Shown: in pieces, positions 1,233 through 45,004 of the stretch
Layout of the letters: the number at the start of each line of letters is the position of its first letter
How positions within the stretch are numbered: the stretch's first letter is position 1
Made by a program: the position numbers and the translations under genes
The notes under the pieces: generated by a model
The model's database searches: none
Told to the model about the DNA's origin: nothing
Seen by the model: only the letters and a program-made list of their open reading frames with translations
Origin: Halarcobacter sp.
GTDB lineage: Bacteria; Campylobacterota; Campylobacteria; Campylobacterales; Arcobacteraceae
Assembly (NCBI GenBank): GCA_963676565.1
Contig: OY781089.1
Coordinates: 128,001 to 192,000 of the forward strand
Length of the DNA: 64,000 nt
Reading direction: 5' to 3'

Positions 1233-1551
1233 GGGTAATATTGCTGAAGAAAAAGCTTGCGATTACTTAAAATCGCAAGGCTTTAATATCATTGAACAAA
1301 ACTTCTATGCTAAAAAACTAGGCGAAATAGATATCATTTGTAAAAAAGAAAAGGTATATCATTTTGTTGAAGTAAAATCAGCAGATGATTATGAAATTGC
1401 TATCAACAATGTTACACTTTCTAAACTTTCAAAATTAAAAAGAAGTGTTGATTATTATTTACAAAAAAACTCTTTAGATACTGATTTTTGTATTGATGTT
1501 ATTATTGTAGTTGAAGATAAAATAGAAATTTTAGAGAATATTACATTTTAA
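1219..1551 (+). CDS. YraN/UPF0102 family PD-(D/E)xK protein
   Basis: GNIAEEKACDYL...GEIDII...HFVEVK motifs; TTG start overlaps the upstream gene. Confidence 0.9.
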   Translation: MSRHKGNIAEEKACDYLKSQGFNIIEQNFYAKKLGEIDIICKKEKVYHFVEVKSADDYEIAINNVTLSKLSKLKRSVDYYLQKNSLDTDFCIDVIIVVEDKIEILENITF

Positions 1552-1579
1552 AGCAATGGCATATATTTTGCCATTGCTT
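1551..1579. terminator. Hairpin between convergent genes
   Basis: AAGCAATGGCA / TGCCATTGCTT inverted repeat. Confidence 0.7.
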
Positions 1580-1586
1580 ATATTGA

Positions 1587-3851
1587 TTATAGGTTTTTCC
1601 CATCAAAATTGTTTTTATTAACACCTTCAACAACATCTTTAGAAATGTTTTGCGTTTTAAGTGCAATAGAATTTGTTTGTTCTGCAATTGATGCATTTTC
1701 TTGAGTAAATTTATCTAACATTCCAACGGCATCAGCTATTTGTTGAATTCCTAAACTTTGCTCTTTAGCCGCTGTAGCAACATCATTAATTAATTCACTT
1801 GTTTCAATAACTTTATTTTCTAAGCTTGTGAAACCTTCTATCATATTTGCACTTATAGTTTTACCACTATTTGCTTTTTGAGTTGCTGTTTCAACTAACT
1901 CTTTAATATCTTTTGCAACCTCAGCTGATCTTGCAGCTAGATTTCTAACCTCTTGTGCAACAACAGCAAAACCTTTTCCAGCTTCTCCAGCAGTTGCTGC
2001 TTCAACAGCTGCATTAAGTGAAAGAATATTTGTCTGGAAAGCAATTTGATCAATCATAGTAATCGCTTCATTAATAGTTAATACAGTTTCATTTATATCA
2101 TCCATTGAACTTGCTGTATCACTTGCAAGTTTTTTACCATCATTAGCTGAAACCCTTGTATCTTCTGATAAAGAGTTCATTTGTTGTGCTTTAATATTTG
2201 TTTGTTCAATATTACTAGTAATCTCATCAATAGAAGCCGCAGTTTCCTCAAGTGAAGCTGCTTGTCTTGTAGCATTATTACTAATTGTGTATACACTTTG
2301 AGATAGATTATCTGCACTTTCTTTTAATGAAGCTCCATCTTTTTGACTATCTTGAAGCATTTTAGTAATCATCTCATTCATATGCATAATTTCACTACCA
2401 ATTTTCCCAGAAGTTGAATCAAGTTTAACAGTAAAGTCTCTATTTGAATAACTCTCTAAAGCTTTAATAATCTTATTAATATCTTTTCCAACTTGAGTTT
2501 CTAATTGATCAAGCATATGATTTAAAATCTCTTTTAATTCATTTAAAGAATCTATTGATGTTTTTTTATTTACTCTTTTATCAAACTTACCGTCTGATAT
2601 TGTTTGAGCTATATCTTTTACATCTTCAATTAACTCCATATCTTCTTGTGTTGAGATTTTTATTTTCTCTACATTTTCGTTAATTGAGTGTGCCATAACA
2701 CCAAACTCACATGTTGTATTTATATCAATCTCTTTTGTTGTTGATTTCTTTGTATTTAAATACTCAAAGAAACTTTCAAGTCCTGAAGTGATTTTTAGTA
2801 AATAAGTATTTAGTTTTTTTACAGAAATAAGAATAATTAGTCCAATAACTAATAAACTTAATATTGAAGAGATAATTGAAACATTTCTAATGAAATTTGC
2901 ATTTGCTAAATACTCTTCTTCTGGTGCTGAAATTACAAAACTCCAGTTAGTATCTGTATATTTTAAACCAAAGGCATAAGAGTAGTAAATTGAGTTTTGC
3001 CCTGTAGTGAATGACTTTTTAAAGAAAAAGTGATCTTCACCTTTTTTACTATTTTCAAGTAATGATACATAATCTGAATCATTTTTAACAACATCTAATA
3101 TTTTCTTATTCTGAAGATCTTTTTCAATATGACCAACAAGAATCCCATTACTATCTAGAATAAATCCATAACCATTATCATAAAGTTTTATAGAAGAGAT
3201 AAGTTTTGATAACCCATTTAAAAGTAGATCAACTCCAGCTGAACCTATAAATTCACCATCTTTATACATAGGGATACAAATAGAAACAAGAAATTCATCA
3301 ACCCCATCAATTTTCCAAAGATATGGTGCAGTTATAAAAGGTTTTCCTGCATCTTTTGGTCCTTTTATCCAACTCTTTGATTCATCATAGACTGATGGCT
3401 TTGTAAAAACTAATTTACCCTTTGATTTTAATATATATGGATGGAATATTCCATCATTATCATAACTAGTTGAACCATCACTATTATCACCTTTTGGTGT
3501 TAACTTCTCTCCATATTTAGGACTATACCAAATACTATTTATTGCCACATTTCTATTTAATATTGATTTTTCCCATGCTATCATCTCTTTTTCATCAATC
3601 ATAGCACCATTTACAGCAGCTGCTTCTATTCTTGTAGCAAAAGACTGTGCAACTTCTAATGCTATATTTAACTCTTCTTGAACAGCTGTACCATGTTTTT
3701 GGGCAAATGTTTTTATGTAAGATTCTGCATCACTTTGTGCTGCTTCATAAGAAAACTTCACTATTATTACTGAAGCTAAACCAAATACAATAAAAACAGT
3801 TCCAAGGATATTAAATAGTAATTTTTTACCAAAACTTGATTTTTTTTTCAT
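1587..3851 (-). CDS. Methyl-accepting chemotaxis protein with dCache sensor
   Basis: Two TM segments, Cache-like ITAPY/GVDL motifs, [37 protein letters not shown] signature. Confidence 0.95.
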
Positions 3852-29208: not shown

Positions 29209-30384
29209 ATGGACAAAATAATAGATATTTTAGACTCTATTGCCTATGAAAAAGGTCTAAAAAACGAAGATGTTGAAACAGCATTAAAAGAATCGTTAAT
29301 TAAAACTGCCGAAAAGATGGTTGATGCAACTCTTAGATATGATGCAGAGATTGATAGAAAAAATAAAAAATTAGAACTATTCCAAAAAATTGAAGTTGTT
29401 GAAAATGGCGACGAAAGATTGCTAGAAGATGGAGTTGATCAATATGATAACATTATCAGTAAAGAAAACTTTATCTCAATTGATGAAGCAAAAGAGATTG
29501 ATGAAAGTTTAGAAATCGGAGACTTTGTAAACTACGATTTAGAATTTGAAAACATGGGAAGAAACGCTGCAACTATTTTGCACAATAACTTCGAATATAG
29601 AGTTCAAAGATTTTTAGAAGAATCACTACTAAGTAAATATAAAAATAAAATTGGAAAAACGATTAGTGGAACTGTAACAAGGGTTGATAGACAAGAAAAC
29701 ACCTTTGTAGAAATTGGTGAAGTTAAAGGTATGCTTCCAAGAAAAAGTAGAATCAAAGGTGAATCTTTTAGAGTTGGAGATACTGTAAAAGCTGTTGTTA
29801 GAGGTGTTAATATCGACAAAACAAATGGTTTAGTTGTTGAGATTTCAAGAACATCTCCAAAATTCTTAGAATCACTTTTAGCTTCTGAAGTTCCAGAATT
29901 AAAAGATGGAATCATCTCAATTGAAGCAAGTGCTAGAATCCCAGGAAGTAGAGCAAAAATTGCCCTTTTATCAACAGATTCAAATGTAGACCCTATTGGT
30001 TCTATTGTTGGGGTAAAAGGTGTTAGAATTGGTGCTGTTTCAAAACAATTAAGTGGTGAAAACATTGATTGTGTTGAATACTCAACAATCCCTGAAATGT
30101 TTATCTCAAGAGCTTTATCTCCTGCAATTATCTCAAGTGTAGTTATTGAAAAATATGCAGAGGGAAATGAAAAAGGTAAGGCAATTGTTACAATTCCAGG
30201 TGATCAAAAATCAAAAGCTATTGGAAAAGCTGGATTAAATATCAGATTAGCTTCAATGCTTACAAAATATGAAATTGAGTTAAAAGAGATTGGCGGAGCT
30301 TCTGTTCAAAGTGGAGATAAAAATAATTCACAAGAACAAGAAAAAGTAACAGATACAGCAAGTTTAGAGGCACTATTTAAATAA
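29209..30384 (+). CDS. nusA: Transcription termination factor NusA
   Basis: S1 and KH domains, EVPE, ARIPG.RAK, AIGKAGLNIRLA. Confidence 0.96.
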   Translation: MDKIIDILDSIAYEKGLKNEDVETALKESLIKTAEKMVDATLRYDAEIDRKNKKLELFQKIEVVENGDERLLEDGVDQYDNIISKENFISIDEAKEIDESLEIGDFVNYDLEFENMGRNAATILHNNFEYRVQRFLEESLLSKYKNKIGKTISGTVTRVDRQENTFVEIGEVKGMLPRKSRIKGESFRVGDTVKAVVRGVNIDKTNGLVVEISRTSPKFLESLLASEVPELKDGIISIEASARIPGSRAKIALLSTDSNVDPIGSIVGVKGVRIGAVSKQLSGENIDCVEYSTIPEMFISRALSPAIISSVVIEKYAEGNEKGKAIVTIPGDQKSKAIGKAGLNIRLASMLTKYEIELKEIGGASVQSGDKNNSQEQEKVTDTASLEALFK

Positions 30385-31784
30385 TGAAAATTGAAATCTT
30401 TGATTCAGTAAAAAAAACAAAAGTTCTATTTGAACCAATTAAAAATGATGAAGTAAGAATATATGTTTGTGGACCAACAGTTTATGACGATTCACACTTA
30501 GGACATGCAAGATCTGCGATTGCTTTTGATTTACTCCATAGGGTTTTAAAAGCTAATGGATATAAAGTTATTATGACTAAAAACTTTACTGATATTGATG
30601 ATAAGATTATCAAAAAAATGCACGAAACTAAAAGAAGTTTGGAAGATATTACAAGTCTTTATATCAATGCTTATAAAAGTGATATGGAAACTTTAAATAT
30701 CTTACCAAACTCACTTGAACCAAAGGCAACACAAAATCTTCAAATAATGATTGATATGATTGAAGATTTGATGTCAAAAGATATAGCCTATAAAATCTCA
30801 GATGGTGTTTATTTTGATGTATCAAAAGATAGTGAATATGGTTCTTTATCAAAAAGAGCTAGTGACGAAAACTCAATTGCTAGAGTTGAATCAAACACTG
30901 AAAAAAGAAACCCTAGTGATTTTGCACTTTGGAAATTTGAAAAAGCAGATGATGTAGCCTATGAGTCTCCTTTTGGGAAAGGAAGACCTGGATGGCATAT
31001 TGAATGTTCTGCAATGATTAATAAACATCTAGCTTATAAAGATGAGCCTTTTCAAATAGATATTCATGGTGGCGGTGCTGACCTTCTATTTCCTCACCAT
31101 GAAAATGAAGCTGCTCAAACTAGATGTTCAACAAAATCACACCTTGCAAAATATTGGATGCACAATGGTTTTGTAACAATTGATGGTGAAAAGATGAGTA
31201 AATCTTTAGGGAACTCATTTTTCCTAAAAGATATCTTAAAATCTTATTCAGGTGAGGTTGTTAGATTTTATCTATTAACTGCACAATATAGAGCAAACTT
31301 TAACTTCAATGAAGAGGATTTAATCTCTTCTAAAAAAAGACTTGATAAATTATATAGAGTTAAAAAAAGAGTTTATGGTGGTGGAAAATCTGCTGTAAAC
31401 AAAGAGTTTAAAGAGTCTTTACTAACTGCTTTAAATGATGATTTAAACTCAGCAAAAGCTATCTCAATCATAGATGAGTATATAAATAAAGCCAATGAAA
31501 CACTTGATAAAGAACCAAAAAATAAAGCTTTCAAAAAAGAGCTTGTTGCAACTTTGGAGTTTATTGATGAAGTGATTGGAATTGGTGGAAGTGATGCTTA
31601 CTCTTATTTTCAATTTGGAATTTCAAATGAAGATATCTCTAAAATTGAAGAACTTATTGAAAAAAGAACTGAAGCTAAAAAAGCAAAAGATTTTGAAACA
31701 GCTGATAAAGTTAGGGATGAATTAACAGCACTGGGAATTTCTGTAATGGATACGCCTAATGGTGTTGTTTGGGAAAAACTGTAA
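30384..31784 (+). CDS. cysS: Cysteine-tRNA ligase
   Basis: CGPTVY, HLGH, GRPGWHIECSAM, KMSKS. Confidence 0.97.
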   Translation: MKIEIFDSVKKTKVLFEPIKNDEVRIYVCGPTVYDDSHLGHARSAIAFDLLHRVLKANGYKVIMTKNFTDIDDKIIKKMHETKRSLEDITSLYINAYKSDMETLNILPNSLEPKATQNLQIMIDMIEDLMSKDIAYKISDGVYFDVSKDSEYGSLSKRASDENSIARVESNTEKRNPSDFALWKFEKADDVAYESPFGKGRPGWHIECSAMINKHLAYKDEPFQIDIHGGGADLLFPHHENEAAQTRCSTKSHLAKYWMHNGFVTIDGEKMSKSLGNSFFLKDILKSYSGEVVRFYLLTAQYRANFNFNEEDLISSKKRLDKLYRVKKRVYGGGKSAVNKEFKESLLTALNDDLNSAKAISIIDEYINKANETLDKEPKNKAFKKELVATLEFIDEVIGIGGSDAYSYFQFGISNEDISKIEELIEKRTEAKKAKDFETADKVRDELTALGISVMDTPNGVVWEKL

Positions 31785-31797
31785 AATTAGTTTTTCT

Positions 31798-31820
31798 CAT
31801 ATCCTTTTATAAGGTATATG
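31798..31820. terminator. Hairpin between cysS and the end of the array
   Basis: CATATCCTT-TTAT-AAGGTATATG. Confidence 0.5.
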
Positions 31821-31822
31821 TA

Positions 31823-32224
31823 CTATTCACGAGTATATTCATTTGCCATTGTTTCTAATTCTAGTACACGCTTTATGTTTTGTTCCATTGGACAAAAATA
31901 ATACATTGGTGAACCTACATAATTTCCCATCAATTTGCAATGGATATTTCTATATTTGAGCCATGCTATTTGTGAGTTTTCAAATTGCTTTGCATCATCT
32001 ATTGAACGCTTTGATATGTTTTTATAAATAATTTTATATAGTCTATTCATCTCTTTTTTTGCAAATGCAGATGTATTTTCACTGCACATAGCAACAACCG
32101 TATTATTTATTTGACCTTCTTCATGAATACAATCATTGTAATTTTTCTCATATTTATTTTTTGTTTCAGCAAATAAAATAAAAGGCATTAATGCAATAAA
32201 TAATAGTAAATTTGTGACCTTCAT
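31823..32224 (-). CDS. LprI/DUF1311 family secreted protein (last cassette)
   Basis: Signal peptide, C...MC...MNRLY, SQIAWLKYRNIHC; AAGGAG RBS. Confidence 0.8.
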   Translation of the reverse strand: MKVTNLLLFIALMPFILFAETKNKYEKNYNDCIHEEGQINNTVVAMCSENTSAFAKKEMNRLYKIIYKNISKRSIDDAKQFENSQIAWLKYRNIHCKLMGNYVGSPMYYFCPMEQNIKRVLELETMANEYTRE

Positions 32225-32243
32225 ATATTACTCCTTTGTATCA

Positions 32244-32295
32244 ATATAACGCCTACCTCAGCCGCTGAAGATCGGCTCAGAGTCTCTTGTTAGCC
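32244..32295 (-). other. attC site, GC-rich short type (52 bp)
   Basis: GGCTAAC-AAGAGACTCTGAGCCG-ATCTTCAG-CGGCTGAG-GTAGGC-GTTATAT. Confidence 0.75.
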
Positions 32296-32668
32296 ATTTT
32301 CTAGTTATTATAGGCAACCATGTAGCCCCTATAGCACACAGCTGAAAATAGGCTAACCGGTACGGGTGAGCCCAGCCACCCGAGTAGCCAACATCAAAAG
32401 CCAGCCACACAACAAATGTGGAACTTGAAGCCAAAGCCGCAATCAGCACCCTTTCTGGAAATCTCAGTACAGCAAAACCCTCTAATACCGCCAATATTCC
32501 GAACCACGCTGTAAAAAAGCCTAAGGTTAGCCCCCAGGAATACCCACCTCTGTATTCTCTACCTATAGCTTCCGCCACGAAGTGGCCGACTCCATATATC
32601 GCGGTCAGAAGAAGCACCCTGATTATTGGCCGTAACAAAAGCAGATAAACTATGCGCTTTGTCATCAC
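32258..32668 (-). CDS. GC-rich 4-TM hypothetical cassette protein
   Basis: Hydrophobic ORF; 33/60 and 30/60 GC in two hand-counted lines; reads into its attC. Confidence 0.7.
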
Positions 32669-32736
32669 GATTAACCTTTGAAACGCTTAGTTAATAAATC
32701 GGAAACTTTCATGTAAATCCTTCTTATAATTTTAGT

Positions 32737-32805
32737 GTATAATGTTTAAAATGAGCCGATAAATTTCCCTCAGGGTAATTTATTGGCTCCTCTGATTTGT
32801 TAGAC
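32737..32805 (-). other. attC site, 69-bp family (R' GTT changed to ATT)
   Basis: GTCTAAC-AAATC-AGAGGAGC-CAATAAATTACCC-TGA-GGGAAATTTATCG-GCTCATT-TTAAAC-ATTATAC. Confidence 0.88.
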
Positions 32806-32808
32806 GTT

Positions 32809-33693
32809 TTATAATTCAAATCTAAATTCTTCTGGATGTTCATCATTAGGATAGTACGCTTTTATTTTGTATACATTTGTTTTGATTACATTTTCATCAA
32901 TATTTATTTCTTTGTCTACCAATAATCCAAACAGCCATGGTCTTTCAAATTTTTCAATGTATTCAAATGAAATGAGCTTTCCTTCTTCCGTATCAACTTC
33001 ATTAATATTTATTATATTTGATATTTTAACTAATTCAGTTAGAAAAATTAATACACTTTCATCAATATATAAAGAAGACCCACCAATATCTTTTTTTGAG
33101 CCCATATCATCTAGAATATATGCTTTTGCTAAGGCTGTATTCATTTGAAGTTCTTTAAGATTACTTATTACAATTGGATTACCTGTTCCTTTTGCTATAT
33201 TAGAATAACCACCTTTAGGTCTTGTATAATTTAAAACGAAATCATCAATTCTTGCCTCACTAAAAGTATATTCAGCTTTTTCACCAAATGCAATTACAGT
33301 TCTTGCACCTGGCAAATTATTTGAAATCTCTGATTTCATAATAAATACATGAGACATAATAATATCTCTAAGCCATAGCTCAATACCATGGAGAATATTT
33401 ATAGCTTTATCCATAATATTGTTTTCAATGAAATATGTTTTGATAACTCCATCGTTTAACACAAACATATAACTATTTGATGGAGAAAAATGTCTACTAT
33501 GAATTTTGTAAAATTCATCTAATCTATTAGTGATTTTTAACCAATCTTTTTTAGATAATTTCCAATTTGTTTTTGTAAAATGAGAACCAAATCCTAATAA
33601 GTCAGACCATGCACAAAGATTTAAGGATATTTGAAAACCCTCTTTATTTTGCAGTTTATCTCCTAAAGGACTAGAATACTTATTACTATACAT
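32809..33693 (-). CDS. Hypothetical protein, divergent class III nucleotidyl cyclase-like
   Basis: AWSDLLGF, FVLNDGV, ARTVIAFG, ALAKAY motifs in cyclase order. Confidence 0.55.
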   Translation of the reverse strand: MYSNKYSSPLGDKLQNKEGFQISLNLCAWSDLLGFGSHFTKTNWKLSKKDWLKITNRLDEFYKIHSRHFSPSNSYMFVLNDGVIKTYFIENNIMDKAINILHGIELWLRDIIMSHVFIMKSEISNNLPGARTVIAFGEKAEYTFSEARIDDFVLNYTRPKGGYSNIAKGTGNPIVISNLKELQMNTALAKAYILDDMGSKKDIGGSSLYIDESVLIFLTELVKISNIININEVDTEEGKLISFEYIEKFERPWLFGLLVDKEINIDENVIKTNVYKIKAYYPNDEHPEEFRFEL

Positions 33694-33870
33694 TTATATA
33701 TCAATCTTTTTTCCACTTAACTTGAAGTAAACAAATCCAGCACTCACTAACGCTATTACAAAAATAATTCCTGTTTCTTCTTTTGCTGGGTTACCTACTA
33801 GACTTAAAAGTCCAATAAATAATCCAAAAAATATAACAATACCTATAGTTCGTGCAAAATTTTCTTTCAT
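33694..33870 (-). CDS. 58-aa two-TM protein (below the ORF track cutoff)
   Basis: GAAGGA RBS, MKENFARTIGIVIFFGLFIGLLSLVGNPAKEETGIIFVIALVSAGFVYFKLSGKKIDI, TAA directly followed by the next ATG. Confidence 0.75.
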   Translation of the reverse strand: MKENFARTIGIVIFFGLFIGLLSLVGNPAKEETGIIFVIALVSAGFVYFKLSGKKIDI

Positions 33871-33886
33871 TTTATTCCTTCATATG

Positions 33887-33921
33887 ACGTTATCGGGTCG
33901 CCGCAGGCGAGCCGATAACGT
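33887..33921. repeat. 35-bp GC-rich hairpin overlapping an attC R' box
   Basis: ACGTTATCGG-G-TCGCC-GCA-GGCGA-G-CCGATAACGT. Confidence 0.85.
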
Positions 33922-33981
33922 TTAAAATGAGCCGATGAATTGCCCACAGGGTAATTTATTGGCTCCACTGATTTGTTATGT
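33913..33981 (-). other. attC site, 69-bp family (both core triplets intact)
   Basis: ACATAAC-AAATC-AGTGGAGC-CAATAAATTACCC-TGT-GGGCAATTCATCG-GCTCATT-TTAAAC-GTTATCG; 8-nt L'' with an extra base versus 7-nt L'. Confidence 0.92.
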
Positions 33982-34755
33982 TTTTTTCTTATTTATAATT
34001 AAGTTATAAGCTTGTACTTTATAAAAGTCTAGCATTACTTCTTGCCCCTTTTTGTTTTTATCATTAATTTTCTTTAGTTTTGCAAGCTCATTCGCATTTT
34101 TACCAGTTAATTCAAAAGCTTTTAAATACATAGTTATATTATTAGGGTTCTCTATTCTAAAAGTATTCAAGCTTTTTTTATCTTTATTGTTAATTTTAAT
34201 GCCTACAAATACATGACCACCTTCTTCATTTCCATTTTCATCAATAAAAGACTTACGATGAAAAATATAAGTCTCATACCCAATATAACTCAACAGTGCA
34301 GCTGCAAGAATTGATTGATCTTCGCAATCTCCTAACTTTGTTTTGTAAGTTGCATTTATTGATTTTAAGATATCCTCATTTTTTTCATCTTCTTGGTATT
34401 TAACTTCATAAATCATAAAATCCAATACTTTTTTTAATTTATCCTTTTGAGACATATCGTTTTTAATTCCTATTTCAATTGCAATACTTTTTACATTTTG
34501 GATATTAGAATTTACATAATTTGCATATTCTTTCATTTCAATTTCAGAAAGAATATTTTCTATTTTATTTTTAGAATAATTTTGTAATCCATATTGATAA
34601 AGAATATTTTCTTGTTCTTGTATAGTTTTTGCTTTGTTTAATTTATTTTGAATTGATAAAAAACTATTTTGTTCTTGTATAGTTTCATTATCACCTAATA
34701 CATAAATTATAATTAGTAATAAAACTGCTATTGCTATTAATATGTTTTTTTTCAT
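33976..34755 (-). CDS. Transglutaminase-like (Cys-His) membrane-anchored cassette protein
   Basis: GDCEDQSILAAALL and GHVFVGI; stop TAA lies within the R'' box. Confidence 0.8.
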   Translation of the reverse strand: MKKNILIAIAVLLLIIIYVLGDNETIQEQNSFLSIQNKLNKAKTIQEQENILYQYGLQNYSKNKIENILSEIEMKEYANYVNSNIQNVKSIAIEIGIKNDMSQKDKLKKVLDFMIYEVKYQEDEKNEDILKSINATYKTKLGDCEDQSILAAALLSYIGYETYIFHRKSFIDENGNEEGGHVFVGIKINNKDKKSLNTFRIENPNNITMYLKAFELTGKNANELAKLKKINDKNKKGQEVMLDFYKVQAYNLIINKKKT

Positions 34756-34800
34756 TTTTAATCTTTCCTCTTAAAAAATAATTGAAACTGCAGACATTAA

Positions 34801-34869
34801 ACATAACGTTTAAAATGAGCCGATGAATTACCCACAGGCTAATTTATTGGCTCCACTGATTTATTATAA
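34801..34869 (-). other. attC site, 69-bp family (R'' AAC changed to AAT)
   Basis: TTATAAT-AAATC-AGTGGAGC-...-GCTCATT-TTAAAC-GTTATGT. Confidence 0.9.
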
Positions 34870-35156
34870 GTTACTGACTTGAAATGTTCTACTATAGGAA
34901 AAGGATCATAAAAATGATGAAGCAGTGTTTTCCATTCTTGATATTTTTCAGAACCTCTAAAACCTTCCGTATGGTCTTCTAATGTCTCCCAATTTACCAG
35001 TAAAATATATTTATTTGGTGTTTCTATGCATTTTTGTAATTGATGTGAAACATACCCTTTCATTTTTGAAATAATGGCTTGTGCTTTTTCAAATGCAATT
35101 TCAAAATCATTTTCTTGACCAATCTTTACATCTAAAACTGCTACTTCTAATATCAC
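34839..35156 (-). CDS. Antibiotic biosynthesis monooxygenase (ABM) family protein
   Basis: MILEVAVLDVK, LLVNWETLEDHTEGFRGS, LLHHFYDPFP. Confidence 0.85.
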   Translation of the reverse strand: MILEVAVLDVKIGQENDFEIAFEKAQAIISKMKGYVSHQLQKCIETPNKYILLVNWETLEDHTEGFRGSEKYQEWKTLLHHFYDPFPIVEHFKSVTYNKSVEPIN

Positions 35157-35173
35157 TTTATTTCCCCTTTGAT

Positions 35174-35192
35174 TTATAACTCTTTGTTAAAT
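35174..35192 (-). other. Collapsed attC (R''-5 bp-R')
   Basis: ATTTAAC-AAAGA-GTTATAA at the gene end; GTTATAA matches the end box of the next cassette. Confidence 0.65.
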
Positions 35193-35500
35193 AACTGATT
35201 GCTACCAATTACTTCATAGACTTTAACTTCTGTATCAGGTTTAATGCGAAATTTTTCGTCTTCTGGATAAAGAACAGCTTTATACAAATTATCACCTGTG
35301 TATCGTTTCATAATATCTAGTTCTTCCCAATGTGATACGAATGTAATTTCAATCTCACCATTTAACTCACGTTTTAGAACATGATACCCTATACACCCGT
35401 CAATATTTTGAGTATCTTTTATACCTGTTTCTGAAAGGTAATTAATAAATCCATTTGCTGTCTCTTTAGGGCAAACACATTTCCATTCTCGATGATACAT
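35174..35500 (-). CDS. ABM-like dimeric alpha-beta barrel protein
   Basis: R.W.., TGI...GC.G..VLKR, SHWE, AVLYPEDEKF; ATG 35500 with AAGGA RBS. Confidence 0.75.
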   Translation of the reverse strand: MYHREWKCVCPKETANGFINYLSETGIKDTQNIDGCIGYHVLKRELNGEIEITFVSHWEELDIMKRYTGDNLYKAVLYPEDEKFRIKPDTEVKVYEVIGSNQLFNKEL

Positions 35501-35520
35501 ACTATTCCTTTGCAATTTTT

Positions 35521-35587
35521 ATATAATATTTAAATACACCAATAAAGTGCCGCAGGTACTTTATTAGTGTGCTATGATTTGTTATGT
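35521..35587 (-). other. attC site, 67-bp variant (R' GTT changed to ATT)
   Basis: ACATAAC-AAATC-ATAGCACACTAATAAAGTACC-TGC-GGCACTTTATTGGTGTAT-TTAAAT-ATTATAT. Confidence 0.8.
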
Positions 35588-36303
35588 GCTTCATTTTCGT
35601 TTAAGTTTACTTTGATTATTTCTTCATTATCTTTTCTTTTAATTAATAAAGTTGCAATGGAAAAATTTTTAACACCTCTATACTCTTCAACATTTTTTTC
35701 GCCAAATATAAAATAACCTTCTTCGTCAAGTTTTTTTATTTGGTTATCAAATTCTAAGCCTATATTAATTTTATCTCGAATTTCTAAATCACTACTGATT
35801 TCACCATAATCAATAAATGTTTGTAATGTACTTCCAATATAGTCAGCTTCATCTTTTGAAATTATATTATCGTAATCGACCCTATATCCCATCACATCAG
35901 ATAAGATATTCATTAACTCTTTCCCAGATGAGATTCTTACTAAAAATTTTATTTCTTCTATATTTTTATTGCCATCAAGTTCTTTTTTTAAAGTCTTTTG
36001 TACCCAGTTTTCATGATTTTGTTTCATATATCTTAATATTTCTTCTGGAAAAGAATCTATTAAAGTATCAATTTCTTTGTGATGATTTCTACATAATAAA
36101 ATCAAGTTATCAAATGTATCATAATCATTTAAATTTGGCTTATGTCTTGGTCCTTTTGATTTGCTACTTATAATATGACATTCTTCACCAATATTTAGGT
36201 TACTATCTGTTTCTTGTTCTGTAATTAGTTCGATTTTACAGATAGCACATCTATTACCTGATTTTGCCCAAAGCATTTTTCTAGTTTTTTCTGATATTGC
36301 CAA
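35572..36303 (-). CDS. HNH endonuclease with unrecognised C-terminal domain (first cassette)
   Basis: LWAKSGNRCAIC, ECHII...GPRH, NLILLCRNHHKEID; TTG start at 36303 after AGGA. Confidence 0.85.
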   Translation of the reverse strand: MAISEKTRKMLWAKSGNRCAICKIELITEQETDSNLNIGEECHIISSKSKGPRHKPNLNDYDTFDNLILLCRNHHKEIDTLIDSFPEEILRYMKQNHENWVQKTLKKELDGNKNIEEIKFLVRISSGKELMNILSDVMGYRVDYDNIISKDEADYIGSTLQTFIDYGEISSDLEIRDKINIGLEFDNQIKKLDEEGYFIFGEKNVEEYRGVKNFSIATLLIKRKDNEEIIKVNLNENEAHNKS

Positions 36304-36334
36304 TCTACTAATTCCTATTTTATTTTTAAATCTC

Positions 36335-36353
36335 ACATAACTATCTATTGAAT
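36335..36353 (-). other. attI-like simple site at the head of the array
   Basis: ATTCAAT-AGATA-GTTATGT (7-5-7); GTTATGT is the exact complement of the first cassette's ACATAAC. Confidence 0.6.
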
Positions 36354-36357
36354 ACCC

Positions 36358-36397
36358 ATTATATAAATAAAGCACTTAAATCCACTTATTTATTATA
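36358..36397 (-). promoter_or_regulatory. Candidate cassette promoter(s)
   Basis: Two minus-strand TATAAT hexamers at 36358-36363 and 36392-36397. Confidence 0.4.
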
Positions 36398-36456
36398 TAT
36401 TCTTAAAAGAGCATATTTTAGGTATAGCTTCTAAAATGTTGGATTTTTAGAGAATC

Positions 36457-36577
36457 GAAAATTCATATTTTTATTAAAATCAAGGCAAAGAGAATTTTTC
36501 ATGAAGGAGTTTACTGTAGTAAATGACTGATTAAAGAATTTTATTTAACGAAGATTCTGATAAAAAGATGGATTTTC
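36457..36577. repeat. 120-bp imperfect palindromic (MITE/RPE-like) element
   Basis: GAAAATTCATATTTTTATTAAAATC pairs with GATTCTGATAAAAAGATGGATTTTC; apical TTTAC-TGTA-GTAAA. Confidence 0.7.
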
Positions 36578-37099
36578 CCTCATCATACATTTTAATATCT
36601 CATAAGTTTTACTAACATCATATGTAGCACTATGATAAGATTCTTGGTCAAAATCTATATTATAAAAAATACAAGTCTCATCTAGTTTTGGATTTTTTAT
36701 TCTCCCATTTTTATTTAAAGCTTTTACAATATGCTTATTCTCTTTCATAGTACAAATATGATTTTCAAAGGAAGCCAAGCCTTCGACTCTTGCAAGCTCA
36801 AAACTTATATTGTGAGCAACTAAAGTTTTTGCATCTTCACAAAATTTTACAAAGTCCTCATCCTCTTTAAAATATGAGGCATATTTTTCTTCACTTTTAT
36901 TTCTATGTTCAAGTATTAATTCAGGGGTTAATCTATGAACTTGAAAGGCGTAATAATTAACTGGATATCTTGAAAGATAATATCTATGAAATTTGTCTAC
37001 AACTTTTAACTCATTATTTTGTATTTGAACTTTAACTGCAGCTGCTTCTATAACGTCATGTGGGTTTAAAGTATTTGTTTCGAAGTCTAATATAATCAT
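36545..37099 (-). CDS. DEDDh 3'-5' exonuclease
   Basis: IILDFET, LVAHNISFE, HSATYDV; start reassigned to ATG 37099. Confidence 0.88.
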   Translation of the reverse strand: MIILDFETNTLNPHDVIEAAAVKVQIQNNELKVVDKFHRYYLSRYPVNYYAFQVHRLTPELILEHRNKSEEKYASYFKEDEDFVKFCEDAKTLVAHNISFELARVEGLASFENHICTMKENKHIVKALNKNGRIKNPKLDETCIFYNIDFDQESYHSATYDVSKTYEILKCMMRENPSFYQNLR

Positions 37100-37301
37100 A
37101 GTGCAATTATATTCAATAAAATGTAAATAATATGTAAGAAAATAAGCACTTTCCACAAATTTTTAAAGAGTTTTAGAATTATTCAAAAAAAAATGGATTT
37201 TTCCTTTCAATTTTATTTATTTTTTGATTTTTTTTCATAATACTTAGTTATAAAATGTGCCTGACTAGCATATATGGTTAAACAAAAAATAAAAAAGGAC
37301 A

Positions 37302-37811
37302 ATGATGTATTACCAAACTGCAGACTTATGTGATTTGAATCAAGATAAAAAAATTCAAGTATTATCCCCCAACTTTAAATCTTTTGGAGGGAAAAAAGGT
37401 TTTCAAGGAAGGGTCATAACTATAAAACTTGATAAAAGTAATTGGGATTTAATTGATATTTTAAAAAATGAAGATGGAACAGGAAAAGTTGTTGCTATTG
37501 ATGTTGATGAAGCTTATTATGGAGTTGTGGGTGATAAACTATCAGCATTTGCAGCAAAAAACAACTTTGTAGCTATGATTATAAATGGATATGTTAGAGA
37601 TACTAGAGAAACTGTTAAATTTGATATTGGTTTATTTGCTTTAGGAACTTGCCCACTTAGAAATTTTGAAAAAACAAAAGGTATTAGAGATATTGAGCTA
37701 AACTTTGGTGGAGTAACTTTCAATAATGGAGATTATGTTTATGCAGATGAAGATGGAGTAATAGTTTCATCTATCGAGCTTGACACAAGTGATGCCCCTA
37801 TAATCTCTTAA
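37302..37811 (+). CDS. rraA: RraA/HMG aldolase family protein
   Basis: TADLCD, FGG..F.G, VGD, GYVRD, YADEDGV. Confidence 0.85.
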   Translation: MMYYQTADLCDLNQDKKIQVLSPNFKSFGGKKGFQGRVITIKLDKSNWDLIDILKNEDGTGKVVAIDVDEAYYGVVGDKLSAFAAKNNFVAMIINGYVRDTRETVKFDIGLFALGTCPLRNFEKTKGIRDIELNFGGVTFNNGDYVYADEDGVIVSSIELDTSDAPIIS

Positions 37812-37893
37812 TACATTAAAAAATTATTCAAGTTTTTCTTATTAAATATAAAAAATTTAAGTATAATTCGAAAAAATTTAATAGGATAAAAAC

Positions 37894-38691
37894 TTGGATA
37901 AAATTAAATCCCTTGTAGAAGCAAAAAAGTTTCAAAACTTTATTATTGTACTTATCATTTTAAATGGTATCTCAATGGGTCTAGAAACCTCAAAATCAGT
38001 TATGTCAAGCTATGGTAGCATACTTCATGCTTTTGATGTGTTTGTGATTTCTGTCTTTACTATAGAGGTAACTCTTAGAATAATTGCCCATAGATTATCT
38101 TTTTTCAAAGACCCATGGTCTTTATTTGATTTCTTTGTTGTGATTATCTCACTAATTCCATCAAGTGGAAGTTTCTCCGTTCTAAGAATCTTAAGAGTTC
38201 TAAGACTTTTTAGACTTATTACAGTAGTTCCACAAATGAGAAAAATTGTTGCTGCACTAATAAGTGTTATTCCTGGAATGATTTCTATTATTGGACTTAT
38301 GAGTTTAATATTTTATGTTTTTGCTATCATGGCTACATCTTTATATGCAGAAACTTTTCCCCAATGGTTTGGAACTCTTGGAGAATCATTTTATACCCTA
38401 TTCCAAATTATGACTTTAGAATCTTGGTCGATGGGAATTGTAAGACCTATAATGGAGCAACACCCACTAGCTTGGGTCTTTTTTATTCCATTTATATTTG
38501 TGGCAACTTTTATTATGATTAACCTTGTTGTTGCAATAATTGTAGATGCAATGAGTATAATAAAAGAAGAAGAGATTGAAAAGATAGAAGAAGTAAAAAC
38601 TTCTGAAAGTGAATTGAAAACTGAAATCAAATCTTTACAAGAAGAGATTAAAGAGTTAAAACATCTAATTATAAAATCAAATAGAAAGTAA
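37894..38691 (+). CDS. Bacterial voltage-gated sodium channel (NavAb-like)
   Basis: S4 [12 protein letters not shown], filter TLESWSM, C-terminal coiled coil. Confidence 0.93.
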
Positions 38692-42759: not shown

Positions 42760-42765
42760 TTTCTC

Positions 42766-43767
42766 TTATTTCCATCCTGATTTATCAAATATTTTAACTG
42801 CATTAATATTATATTTTCCCATAGTATTTATTGAGATATTATCATCTTCAAACGTCCCCCATGAAGAAACCACATCATTTTTCTTAACACCCTTTGCAAC
42901 AGGATATTCAAAGTTCCCATTTGCAAATAAATCTTGTGCCTCAGGACTTAATAAAAACTCTATAAATTTAATAGCATTTTCTTTATTAGGAGAATATTTT
43001 GCAACTCCTGCACCACTTACGTTTATGTGTGTTCCACCATTCTCAAATTTAGGAAATATAATCTTTACTTTTTTAACTGCTTCACTTTCAGCAATATCTT
43101 TATTACCAATCATTTTACCAACATAATAAGTATTTGCAATAGCAATTTTTCCAATTCCATTTGCTACAGCTTTTACTTGATATCTATCATTTCCTCTAGG
43201 TCGTCTTGCCATATTCTTTACAACGCCTTTTGCCCATTTTAAAGCGTACTCTTCACCATGGTGAGCAATAACAGCGGCAAGCATTGATTGATTGTAAACA
43301 TGGTTTGATGATCTAACCATAATCATTTTTTTATACTCTGGTTTTATTAAATCTTCATAGGTTTTAATCTCAATATTACTATCAATTGGAACAATAAAGG
43401 CTCTTACTCTTTTTGTCAATGCAAACCATTTATTATCTTCATCCCTTAGATTTTCAGGAACAACTTCCATTAGATATTTTGATTCAATTGATTGAATTAA
43501 GCCTTTTGATTTTGCTTGATAAAGTCTTCCTGCATCAACAGTGATTAAAACATCTGCTGGTGACTTTTCACCTTCACTTTCTAATCTTTTAATTAAAGCA
43601 TTAGCATCTGCATTTACAACATTTACTTTAATACCTGTTTTTTCCTCAAACATTTTATATAATTGTTTATCTGTATCATAATGTCTGTGAGAATATACAT
43701 TTACTTCATTTGAAGCAAAAACAAAATTTGTAAAAATAAAAAAACTTAATAATATTTGTTTAATCAT
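42766..43767 (-). CDS. Fe3+ ABC substrate-binding protein, paralog 2 (FutA/FbpA)
   Basis: VNVYSHRHY, SPADVLITVDAG, YNQS, ANTYY, HINVSG. Confidence 0.92.
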   Translation of the reverse strand: MIKQILLSFFIFTNFVFASNEVNVYSHRHYDTDKQLYKMFEEKTGIKVNVVNADANALIKRLESEGEKSPADVLITVDAGRLYQAKSKGLIQSIESKYLMEVVPENLRDEDNKWFALTKRVRAFIVPIDSNIEIKTYEDLIKPEYKKMIMVRSSNHVYNQSMLAAVIAHHGEEYALKWAKGVVKNMARRPRGNDRYQVKAVANGIGKIAIANTYYVGKMIGNKDIAESEAVKKVKIIFPKFENGGTHINVSGAGVAKYSPNKENAIKFIEFLLSPEAQDLFANGNFEYPVAKGVKKNDVVSSWGTFEDDNISINTMGKYNINAVKIFDKSGWK

Positions 43768-43825
43768 ATTTGTACCTTTTTAAAATATAGATTATATCAT
43801 TTATGAAGTAAAACATTTCTTATAG

Positions 43826-43850
43826 TAATAATTGTTATCAAAATGATAAT
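43826..43850. promoter_or_regulatory. Fur box-like site
   Basis: TAATAAT-T-GTTATCA then AATGATAAT, upstream of an iron-binding protein gene. Confidence 0.65.
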
Positions 43851-43857
43851 AAGAGAT

Positions 43858-43890
43858 AAAAAAAGGGAGTAGCAAAAACTATTCCCTTTC
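43858..43890 (-). terminator. Intrinsic terminator after paralog 1
   Basis: AAAGGGAGTAG / CTATTCCCTTT stem with A-run. Confidence 0.7.
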
Positions 43891-43914
43891 TTCTTTGTTA
43901 AATATTAGATTGTA

Positions 43915-44922
43915 TTATTTCCAACCAGCTTTATCAAACACTTTTACTGCTGCTGCATTGTTTTTCCCAAGCTCATTAATTGAAATTGTGTCATCTTCAA
44001 ATTCACCCCAAGATTCAACTATAGGATTTTTCTTTACACCATCAATAACTGGATATTCAAAGTTCCCTCCAGCAAATAATTCTTGTGCATCTTTGCTTGC
44101 TAAAAACTCAATAAATTTAATTGCATTTTCTTTATTAGGAGAATATTTTGCAACCCCTGCACCACTTACATTTATATGTGTTCCACCATTTTCAAATTTA
44201 GGAAAGAAAATCTTAACTTTTTTTACAGCTTTAGCTTGTGATTCATCTTTATTATCAACCATTTTACCAATATAATAAGTGTTTGCAATTGCAATTTCAC
44301 CAATACCATTTGCAATAGCTTTTACTTGATATCTGTCATTACCTTTTGGAGCCATTGCCATATTTGCAACTACACCTTTAGCCCAGTTTAAAGCATATTC
44401 TTCACCATGGTGAGCAATCATACCTGCTAATAATGATTGGTTATATGTATTATTTGAAGATCTAACCATGATTTTACCCTTAAATTTTGGGTCTGCTAAA
44501 TCTTCATAAGTAGATAATTCTTTTTCTATTCCTGATCCTAATTTATAAACTGTAACTCTTGCTCTTTTAGTTAAACCAAACCATTGGTTATCTTTATCTC
44601 TTAATTTTTGAGGAATTGAATTTATTAATTTTTCAGACTCAATTGCTTGAAAAAGACCTTTTTCTTTTGCTGTATATAATCTTGCAGCATCTACAGTGAT
44701 TAAAACATCAGCTGGTGATTTTTCACCTTCAGATTCAAGTCTTTGAACTAAAGCAGAACCTTTTGCTTTTACAACATTTACTTTTATACCTGTTTTTTCT
44801 TCAAACATTTTAAACAATATTTTATCTGTGTCATAATGTCTTGTTGAGTAAATATTAACCTCATTTGCAGCATAAATTGAACTTGTCAATAATAATGCAC
44901 CTAAAAATAATTTTTTTAGCAT
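43915..44922 (-). CDS. Fe3+ ABC substrate-binding protein, paralog 1 (FutA/FbpA)
   Basis: Same motifs as paralog 2; ATG 44922 after AAGGA. Confidence 0.92.
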   Translation of the reverse strand: MLKKLFLGALLLTSSIYAANEVNIYSTRHYDTDKILFKMFEEKTGIKVNVVKAKGSALVQRLESEGEKSPADVLITVDAARLYTAKEKGLFQAIESEKLINSIPQKLRDKDNQWFGLTKRARVTVYKLGSGIEKELSTYEDLADPKFKGKIMVRSSNNTYNQSLLAGMIAHHGEEYALNWAKGVVANMAMAPKGNDRYQVKAIANGIGEIAIANTYYIGKMVDNKDESQAKAVKKVKIFFPKFENGGTHINVSGAGVAKYSPNKENAIKFIEFLASKDAQELFAGGNFEYPVIDGVKKNPIVESWGEFEDDTISINELGKNNAAAVKVFDKAGWK

Positions 44923-44936
44923 ATCTATTTCCTTAA

Positions 44937-45004
44937 TGATAATTATTATTGAAATAATACACATCTTATACTTAATTTTTTATTAATAATAATAATGACT
45001 ATCA
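44937..45004. promoter_or_regulatory. Two Fur box-like sites
   Basis: TGATAAT-T-ATTATTG (44937-44951) and TAATAAT-G-ACTATCA (44990-45004). Confidence 0.65.

Follow-up and report, generated by a model that had tools for sequence, protein, structure and literature searches.

A stand-alone class III cyclase fold and a two-helix microprotein joined in one integron-type cassette of Halarcobacter

The window analysed here is a stretch of 64,000 nucleotides from Halarcobacter sp. (GenBank assembly GCA_963676565.1, contig OY781089.1, positions 128,001 to 192,000), and the genome it belongs to is a single complete 3.34-Mb contig. Near the middle of the window, two open reading frames (ORFs) lie side by side on the minus strand. 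The upstream one (33694-33870) encodes a microprotein of 58 residues that is predicted to form a hairpin of two transmembrane (TM) helices. The downstream one (32809-33693) encodes a protein of 294 residues with a predicted stand-alone class III cyclase fold. A first-pass annotation, made from the letters alone, proposed that the two form a cyclase-plus-membrane module; it also offered an alternative, in which two integron cassettes were fused by loss of an attC recombination site. As it described, the TAA of the microprotein gene lies directly against the ATG of the larger gene, and there is no attC site between them.

A repeat of 65-70 nucleotides occurs three times in the window, each time outside the pair. 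It flanks the two-gene unit as well as an adjacent transglutaminase-like gene. On the coding strand, its architecture is that of an attC site. An R'' box with AAC at its end is followed, after a spacer, by an imperfect L''/L' stem of 17 bp, and a second spacer leads to an R' box that starts with GTT. The composite cassette has its 3' recombination site in the first copy, r1 (32739-32805, minus strand), which is assigned from its repeat family (D3), its fold and sequence, and an alignment with the closest relative of the locus, L001. The R'' box of r1 is GTCTAAC (32799-32805) on the coding strand, and its R' box is degenerate, reading ATTAT against GTTAT. The second copy, r2 (33915-33981, minus strand; assigned from repeat family and fold), is both the 5' boundary of the composite cassette and the 3' site of the neighbouring cassette. 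That neighbour carries the transglutaminase-like ORF of 259 residues (33976-34755), whose stop codon falls within the R'' box of this copy. The last of the three, r3 (34803-34870, minus strand), overlaps the end of an ORF that encodes a 105-residue protein with an ABM domain.

The whole genome holds only four copies of the repeat. The fourth stands alone, 2.4 Mb away, amid small uncharacterised ORFs of the same strand (G000:C1:2607223-2607271, locus L088). No integron integrase was found in the complete genome, where the top score against TIGR02249 is 50.4 bits and the cut-off is 265. With four repeat copies and no integrase, the setting is a small attC cluster rather than a full integron.

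Between r2 and the microprotein gene lies a GC-rich hairpin (33887-33921), recognised from its DNA fold and a match to the genome, to which no strand applies. It has a 15-bp stem with one mismatch, in a region of 27% G+C, and the extended stretch is predicted to fold with -29.7 kcal/mol. The R' box of r2 forms its outer arm, and the two outer arms resemble an R'/R'' box pair. The hairpin matches a single place in the genome and is absent at other microprotein loci. The sequence GTCATAT, which the first-pass annotation took as the start box of the cassette, is placed beyond this hairpin. The true start box is GTTATCG, at the R' box of the upstream attC site. An Rfam scan of 30000-38000 returned nothing relevant, the presence of an attC model in Rfam being unconfirmed.

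The larger protein was modelled with AlphaFold2 from a family alignment of 54 sequences. The model has a mean predicted local distance difference test score (pLDDT) of 93.5 and a predicted template modelling score (pTM) of 0.90. The Foldseek matches listed are all class III adenylyl or guanylyl cyclases; the best is 2w01_B, with an E-value of 4.5e-8, and there are 136 matches at E<=0.001. Likewise, the 50 entries listed by VIA-align are all cyclases, and the lowest of them has a Z of 13.3. The strongest include 1y11 (Z 16.0, root-mean-square deviation (rmsd) 4.6, 175 residues aligned), 8sl4_A (Z 15.8, rmsd 3.1, 191 residues) and 7d9t_B (Z 15.7), and Rv1264, soluble guanylate cyclase and AC5 all reach about 16. 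The class III cyclase fold of the modelled protein is thereby confirmed, the outcome that the first-pass annotation had named as the structural check of its proposal. The matches cover model residues from about 10 to 294, so that the C-terminal sheet is part of the domain. In the ESM Atlas, the 30 nearest clusters share no Pfam family; the nearest ones with a name, DUF2652 and PF00211, score 0.89 and are a lead only.

Compared with class III cyclase domains such as PF00211, Rv1264, Cya2 and soluble guanylate cyclase, the protein thus has the same fold, with a Z of 14-16 over 175-196 residues. It differs from them in several ways. The roughly 100 residues by which it exceeds a cyclase domain are insertions, the fused sensor domains of the known enzymes are absent, and membership is not detectable at the level of sequence. 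In the family, W29, N80 and Q183 are moreover invariant, and the motif YPxDE is conserved at the C-terminus.

In class III cyclases, one of the two metal-binding Asp residues ends strand 1 and the other sits in the turn between strands 2 and 3. A phosphate-binding Arg lies on strand 4, and the helix that follows strand 5 bears the Asn and Arg of the transition state, so that the catalytic residues follow the order Asp, Asp, Arg, Asn, basic residue. The motifs SDLLGF, LNDGV, RTVIAFG and ALAKAY, which had been read as cyclase motifs in that order, are indeed present and lie in the most conserved columns of the family. Conservation was counted over 174 family sequences. The two Asp residues proposed as metal ligands are kept in nearly every member (D31 in 172 of 174, D81 in 173). 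Further along the chain, R131 is kept in all 174, N185 in 173, and a Lys or Arg at position 190 in 170. N80 (173/174), G137 (174/174) and Q183 (174/174) are kept as well. The model places D31 last in strand 1, within a motif of the F-x-D-I-x-G-F type, D81 in the turn between strands 2 and 3, R131 first in strand 4, and N185 and K190 on the next long helix. The order is that of class III cyclases, and D31, D81, R131, N185 and K190 are candidate catalytic residues.

The family is large and its distribution is patchy. A word-indexed search found relatives of the 294-residue protein in 66 clusters. An exhaustive search among representatives at 50% identity found 207 at E<=0.001, 130 at 1e-10 and 36 at 1e-30. 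Nearly all members are stand-alone proteins of 280-330 residues. Their 48 genome loci are spread over Campylobacterota, Bacillota, Bacteroidota, Acidobacteriota, Pseudomonadota and other phyla. Within the order of the host, the enzyme occurs in 2 of 401 genomes, and it was not found in the two other genomes of the genus that were searched. The family is accessory and mobile. Among the 2.9 million viral contigs there are just two distant relatives, at 27-30% identity, and a phage-borne anti-defence role was set aside. The full texts searched do not describe the family; preprint supplements, such as the Pucsar Table S1 of cyclase accessions, lay outside that search.

The 58-residue microprotein is a real gene, since it is conserved in 18 protein clusters and has a low ratio of nonsynonymous to synonymous change (pN/pS) of 0.13-0.19 against four other loci. 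The homologous clusters share 70-91% identity, and one of them is found on 142 contigs. Hydropathy agrees with the two-helix protein that had been suggested: hydrophobic stretches at about 5-27 and 32-52 surround a polar loop, and the loop sequence GLLSLVGNPA.EET is invariant in the alignment of homologues. The gene carries its own ribosome-binding motif, AAGGA. No Pfam, NCBIfam or PADLOC domain was found in the protein. In the order, it occurs in 2 of 401 genomes, namely the genome of the window and, as one weak match, a different genome.

Four loci show the microprotein gene in other company. In L051-L053 the gene has 90-91% identity and is followed directly by its own attC site, of the same type as in the window; the next cassettes all differ. 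In these three metagenome loci an 88-residue DUF1488 protein is encoded 3 nucleotides upstream, in the same cassette (for instance L051:984-1247), and it may be the usual partner of the microprotein. In L054 the microprotein gene (83% identity) stands alone in its cassette, and the attC sites on either side are of a different type. A derivation of the microprotein's 5' region from the start of the DUF1488 gene (L051/L052) was considered and dropped, as the likeness is limited to the ribosome-binding region.

One model for the two genes of the window is a minimal signalling defence module. In this model, a nucleotide made by the enzyme gates the two-TM microprotein, which perforates the membrane. 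The ORFs abut and are probably translationally coupled, and the microprotein is conserved and under purifying selection. There are also precedents: TM helices are found in about a third of integron defence cassettes, according to one study (10.1101/2024.07.02.601719), and another notes that mCpol genes are in some cases coupled, or fused, to 2TM domains predicted to perforate membranes (PMC12657218). The distribution of the two genes largely refutes the model. By tblastn, with some locus flanks being short, a relative of the microprotein occurs at none of 51 enzyme-family loci, and a relative of the enzyme at none of 6 microprotein loci. The homologues are thus never adjacent to the small TM gene, which is the finding that the first-pass annotation had itself named as fatal to its cyclase-plus-membrane module. 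Near-identical enzyme genes exist without the microprotein, and so does the more distant one of L001. The microprotein, in turn, has its own attC site elsewhere and, in L051-L053, the different upstream partner. As had been pointed out from the start, 58 residues leave little space for a ligand domain; neither the cyclic-nucleotide-binding domain of PycTM/PucTM effectors (10.64898/2026.08.12.744502) nor the sensor domain of S-2TMbeta effectors (PMC12657218) would fit. PADLOC and Pfam give no match. A complex prediction for the two proteins scored 0.00 and, having been run without controls, speaks neither for nor against binding. The module is accordingly very unlikely.

The other model is the fusion of two cassettes by attC loss, and it is the better supported reading of the pair: each of the two genes is found elsewhere as its own cassette bounded by attC sites. 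For the enzyme, the closest genomic relative (L001, 80% identity) is in a metagenome-assembled genome (MAG) of Sulfurimonas. There, the same type of attC site stands on both sides of the enzyme gene alone, and the start box GTTAAAC is complementary to the cassette's own R'' box, GTTTAAC.

Still closer relatives are found in metagenomes, where enzyme genes without the microprotein are 96% identical to that of the window. In two contigs of a wastewater run, X6, the microprotein gene and the hairpin are missing: position 33695 is linked to 33916 by 11 letters of different sequence. A single contig of 974 nucleotides from a marine run, X4, matches 32776-33695 with 33 differences over 920 nucleotides and then continues with the same letters as X6. 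On the coding strand, these letters contain the start box GTTAGAC, which is exactly complementary to the end box GTCTAAC; a ribosome-binding motif, AAAGG, lies between this start box and the enzyme ATG. The window start box GTTATCG does not match the end box of the enzyme, as a fusion would predict. In X6, the microprotein gene is on a separate contig (144 nucleotides, 17 differences). The unfused contigs of X4 and X6, together with L001 and L051-L054, indicate that the arrangement in the window is the derived one.

The summed contig depth in X6 is about 1,500-3,100 over the attC repeats (32753-32803 and 33926-33976) and 8-50 over the genes. Many differing sequences stand beside the repeats in this run, so this type of attC site serves many cassettes in that metagenome. 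The fused form itself is seen in run X2, which is identical to the window across the junction (33643-33898, 0 differences). Run X3 has no contig over 33620-33874, and X21-X24, which bear the same species label, contain almost none of the window's words; such holes prove nothing.

The fusion is best explained by a deletion that removed the attC site of the microprotein together with the enzyme's own start box and ribosome-binding site, leaving TAA directly followed by ATG. No Shine-Dalgarno-like motif is found upstream of the enzyme ATG in the window copy, and the enzyme is for this reason probably translated only by reinitiation after the microprotein.

The genes next to family members give an indication of what the enzyme may do. 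Among the 69 immediate neighbours, 26 belong to Pfam families of restriction, abortive infection (Abi), toxin-antitoxin, STAND or recombinase type. They include ParE, Mrr_cat, AbiEii, HNH, HEPN_AbiV, SduA_C, AIPR, NACHT, nSTAND3, PemK, SymE, HsdS and HsdM, as well as integrases and a transposase, families which we take to be of the defence and mobility classes named. At one locus (L043) a distant family gene adjoins a true integron integrase (491.8 bits). An all-versus-all comparison of 159 flanking ORFs found just one recurrent family, an Mrr_cat nuclease of 232-266 residues whose C-terminal half is unassigned. One Sulfuricurvum MAG and two genomes of Alteromonas encode it directly upstream of the family gene, at a distance of 8-86 nucleotides (L002:5294-5989, L041:321-1118, and the -1 gene of L042). 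These loci may be a genuine two-gene subgroup. A further relative with the cyclase fold, P0200, has a C-terminal extension of ankyrin repeats.

It could be argued that the family is an ordinary physiological signalling cyclase or a housekeeping enzyme, which is mobile but has no role in conflicts with phages or plasmids. The host already has class III cyclases, in the form of two PF00211 genes of its own; 15 of the 69 neighbours are of housekeeping type; and models of defence systems do not match. The patchiness of the enzyme in its order and genus is extreme for such a role, and the protein is without a sensor or regulatory domain. The integron cassette context in two lineages, the abundance of restriction, Abi, toxin-antitoxin and STAND genes among the neighbours, and the existence of a fusion to an AbiGi domain also speak against it. 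A purely physiological role is unlikely on these grounds.

In another explanation, the protein has the cyclase (palm) fold without being a cyclase, and is a toxin of nucleotidyltransferase type. Such a toxin would follow a logic like that of AbiEii/AbiGii and be held in check by a variable neighbour. In P0122, an N-terminal AbiGi domain is fused to the cyclase-fold domain; AbiEii genes flank two family loci, and at a third locus the family gene starts within a 1-nucleotide overlap with a HEPN_AbiV gene. The basic residue on the helix and the base-specifying positions are also unlike those of canonical cyclases. P0122, however, is the one fusion among the 83 distant representatives scanned, a close partner on the same strand is missing at most loci, and the best structural matches are all cyclases, with no transferases among them. 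We consider this explanation quite improbable.

Related systems show what the locus is and what it is not. It shares with Pycsar and Pucsar an enzyme of cyclase fold whose surroundings are of defence type, and 8jsz_A, a uridylate cyclase of the Pycsar type, matches the model with a Z of 13.7. In those systems (10.64898/2026.08.12.744502), the effector is conserved as an operon partner and joins a cyclic-nucleotide-binding domain to either a TIR domain or three TM helices. The 58-residue protein beside the enzyme has two TM helices and no sensor, the pairing is not conserved, and PADLOC is negative.

Panoptes, which combines the mCpol synthase OptS with the S-2TMbeta effector OptE, is like the locus in placing a minimal palm-fold synthase beside a two-pass membrane protein. 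As described in PMC12657218, S-2TMbeta is a 2TM element obligately fused to a nucleotide-binding domain of beta-barrel type, and mCpol is more rarely coupled to bare 2TM domains; effectors of CARF-2TM or SAVED-2TM type also belong to such systems. The 58-residue protein has the 2TM part without a soluble sensor domain, and its linkage to the enzyme is not conserved. The enzyme's best matches are class III cyclases, and Pfam assigned it no family, the presence of an mCpol model in the library being unconfirmed. With no sensor on the small protein and no recurrence of the pairing, the locus is not a Pycsar/Pucsar system, and probably not a Panoptes system either.

There is also a likeness with integron cassettes, in particular those of clusters of attC sites lacking integron integrases (CALIN), including bacteriophage-resistance integron cassettes (BRiCs). 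As in these, single genes lie between attC-type sites, another genus (L001) has both the gene and its type of attC site, start and end box are complementary in X4 and X6, and a distant relative stands beside a true IntI (L043). The window is unlike them in that one cassette holds two unrelated genes after loss of the internal attC site. Two papers on screens for integron defence (10.1101/2024.07.02.601719 and 10.64898/2026.03.17.712381) do not use the word "cyclase" in their main text.

The best explanation, which we regard as probable, is that the window holds a composite cassette of two otherwise independent genes, and that the enzyme is accessory cargo, most likely a single-gene abortive-infection or other defence system. 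The mobile, defence-type context is what favours a stand-alone enzyme of this kind. Judging from the fold and the conserved residues, the enzyme is most likely a homodimeric, two-metal, NTP-using (nucleoside triphosphate) cyclase or nucleotidyltransferase. It probably acts alone, as cargo that moves horizontally among defence islands and integrons. There are two ways in which it might work. The enzyme may make a nucleotide signal that is read by an effector encoded elsewhere, or it may itself be the effector, by draining NTPs or producing a toxic nucleotide.

A bolder version would make the whole family a widespread single-gene anti-phage system in which the enzyme is both sensor and effector, acting by NTP drain or conversion or through a nucleotide that hits targets of the host or phage and has no dedicated receptor. 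In the window, the accidental fusion would in addition have placed it under the translational control of the microprotein and offered selection a new unit of two genes. This version is a possibility on the doubtful side.

Several observations weigh against the interpretation of the locus as a fused cassette that carries a cyclase-type defence enzyme. Some concern sequence. The 294-residue protein has no meaningful match in Pfam (E<=0.1), NCBIfam or PADLOC, to a cyclase family or any other. A cyclase Pfam family is found in none of 54 close and none of 83 distant members, and the family profile finds no cyclase among the sequences of the Protein Data Bank. A local hhalign comparison with 25 PF00211 domains from the phylum gives a probability of 0.2% over 7 columns; the sole stretch aligned sets WSDLLGF against FsDIrgF, the cyclase motif that bears the first metal Asp, and this short match itself favours the cyclase assignment. 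The catalytic residues were mapped onto cyclases through the order of secondary structure elements, without a printed structural alignment. The basic residue of the helix is a Lys at N+5, where cyclases have an Arg at N+4, and no counterpart of the base-specifying Lys/Asp pair was recognised. The copy in the window also has Leu179, where 163 of 174 members, L001 included, have a Pro in the motif N-P-x-x-L-Q-M-N; this copy may be slightly impaired. As for the fusion, run X2 is not independent, because it shares the study and species label of the probable source. The junction lies in a short A/T-rich stretch common to both parents, so that the exact breakpoints are not resolvable. A scan of 32600-35300 found 13 promoter-like sites where 17.8 are expected, and no terminators; there is no excess of promoter-like sites. 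Finally, a defence role is drawn from the neighbours only, and the rest of the 69 comprise 28 without a Pfam family and 15 of housekeeping type.

Other genes of the window lie outside the cassette. Just past r1, an ORF of 136 residues (32258-32668, minus strand) encodes a protein with several TM segments and has 48% G+C, compared with 23-32% in its neighbours; Pfam and NCBIfam have no match to it. It has the look of an independent foreign insertion. On the other side of the cassette, some 2 kb away, a protein of 267 residues (35572-36375, minus strand) has an N-terminal HNH domain that is matched, in its nuclease part only, by the PADLOC models for HNH effectors of the cyclic-oligonucleotide-based antiphage signalling type (CBASS; E 1e-29). 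Its C-terminal 135 or so residues have no assigned domain. Beside it lies the gene of a DEDDh exonuclease (36545-37156, minus strand; PADLOC DEDDh, E 5e-22), and the two may be a further defence gene pair. Farther away, two adjacent paralogous ORFs of 333 and 349 residues (42761-44964, minus strand; repeat families D1/D2) share about 78% nucleotide identity and sit upstream of genes like those of ABC transporters. They look like a tandem duplication.

The locus is a clean natural case of integron cassettes merging, in which the second gene has been left without its own ribosome-binding site. New operons could in part arise in this way, with unrelated cargo brought together by the loss of an internal attC site. 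The lesson for annotation is that adjacency within a cassette is weak functional evidence unless it recurs.

The enzyme family is an unnamed and very divergent version of a known fold, found in surroundings of defence type and outside the current models of Pfam, NCBIfam and PADLOC. If it is active, it would add an effector-less branch, with at least 207 clusters at 50% identity, to cyclase-based immunity, and it would raise the question of who reads, or suffers from, its product.

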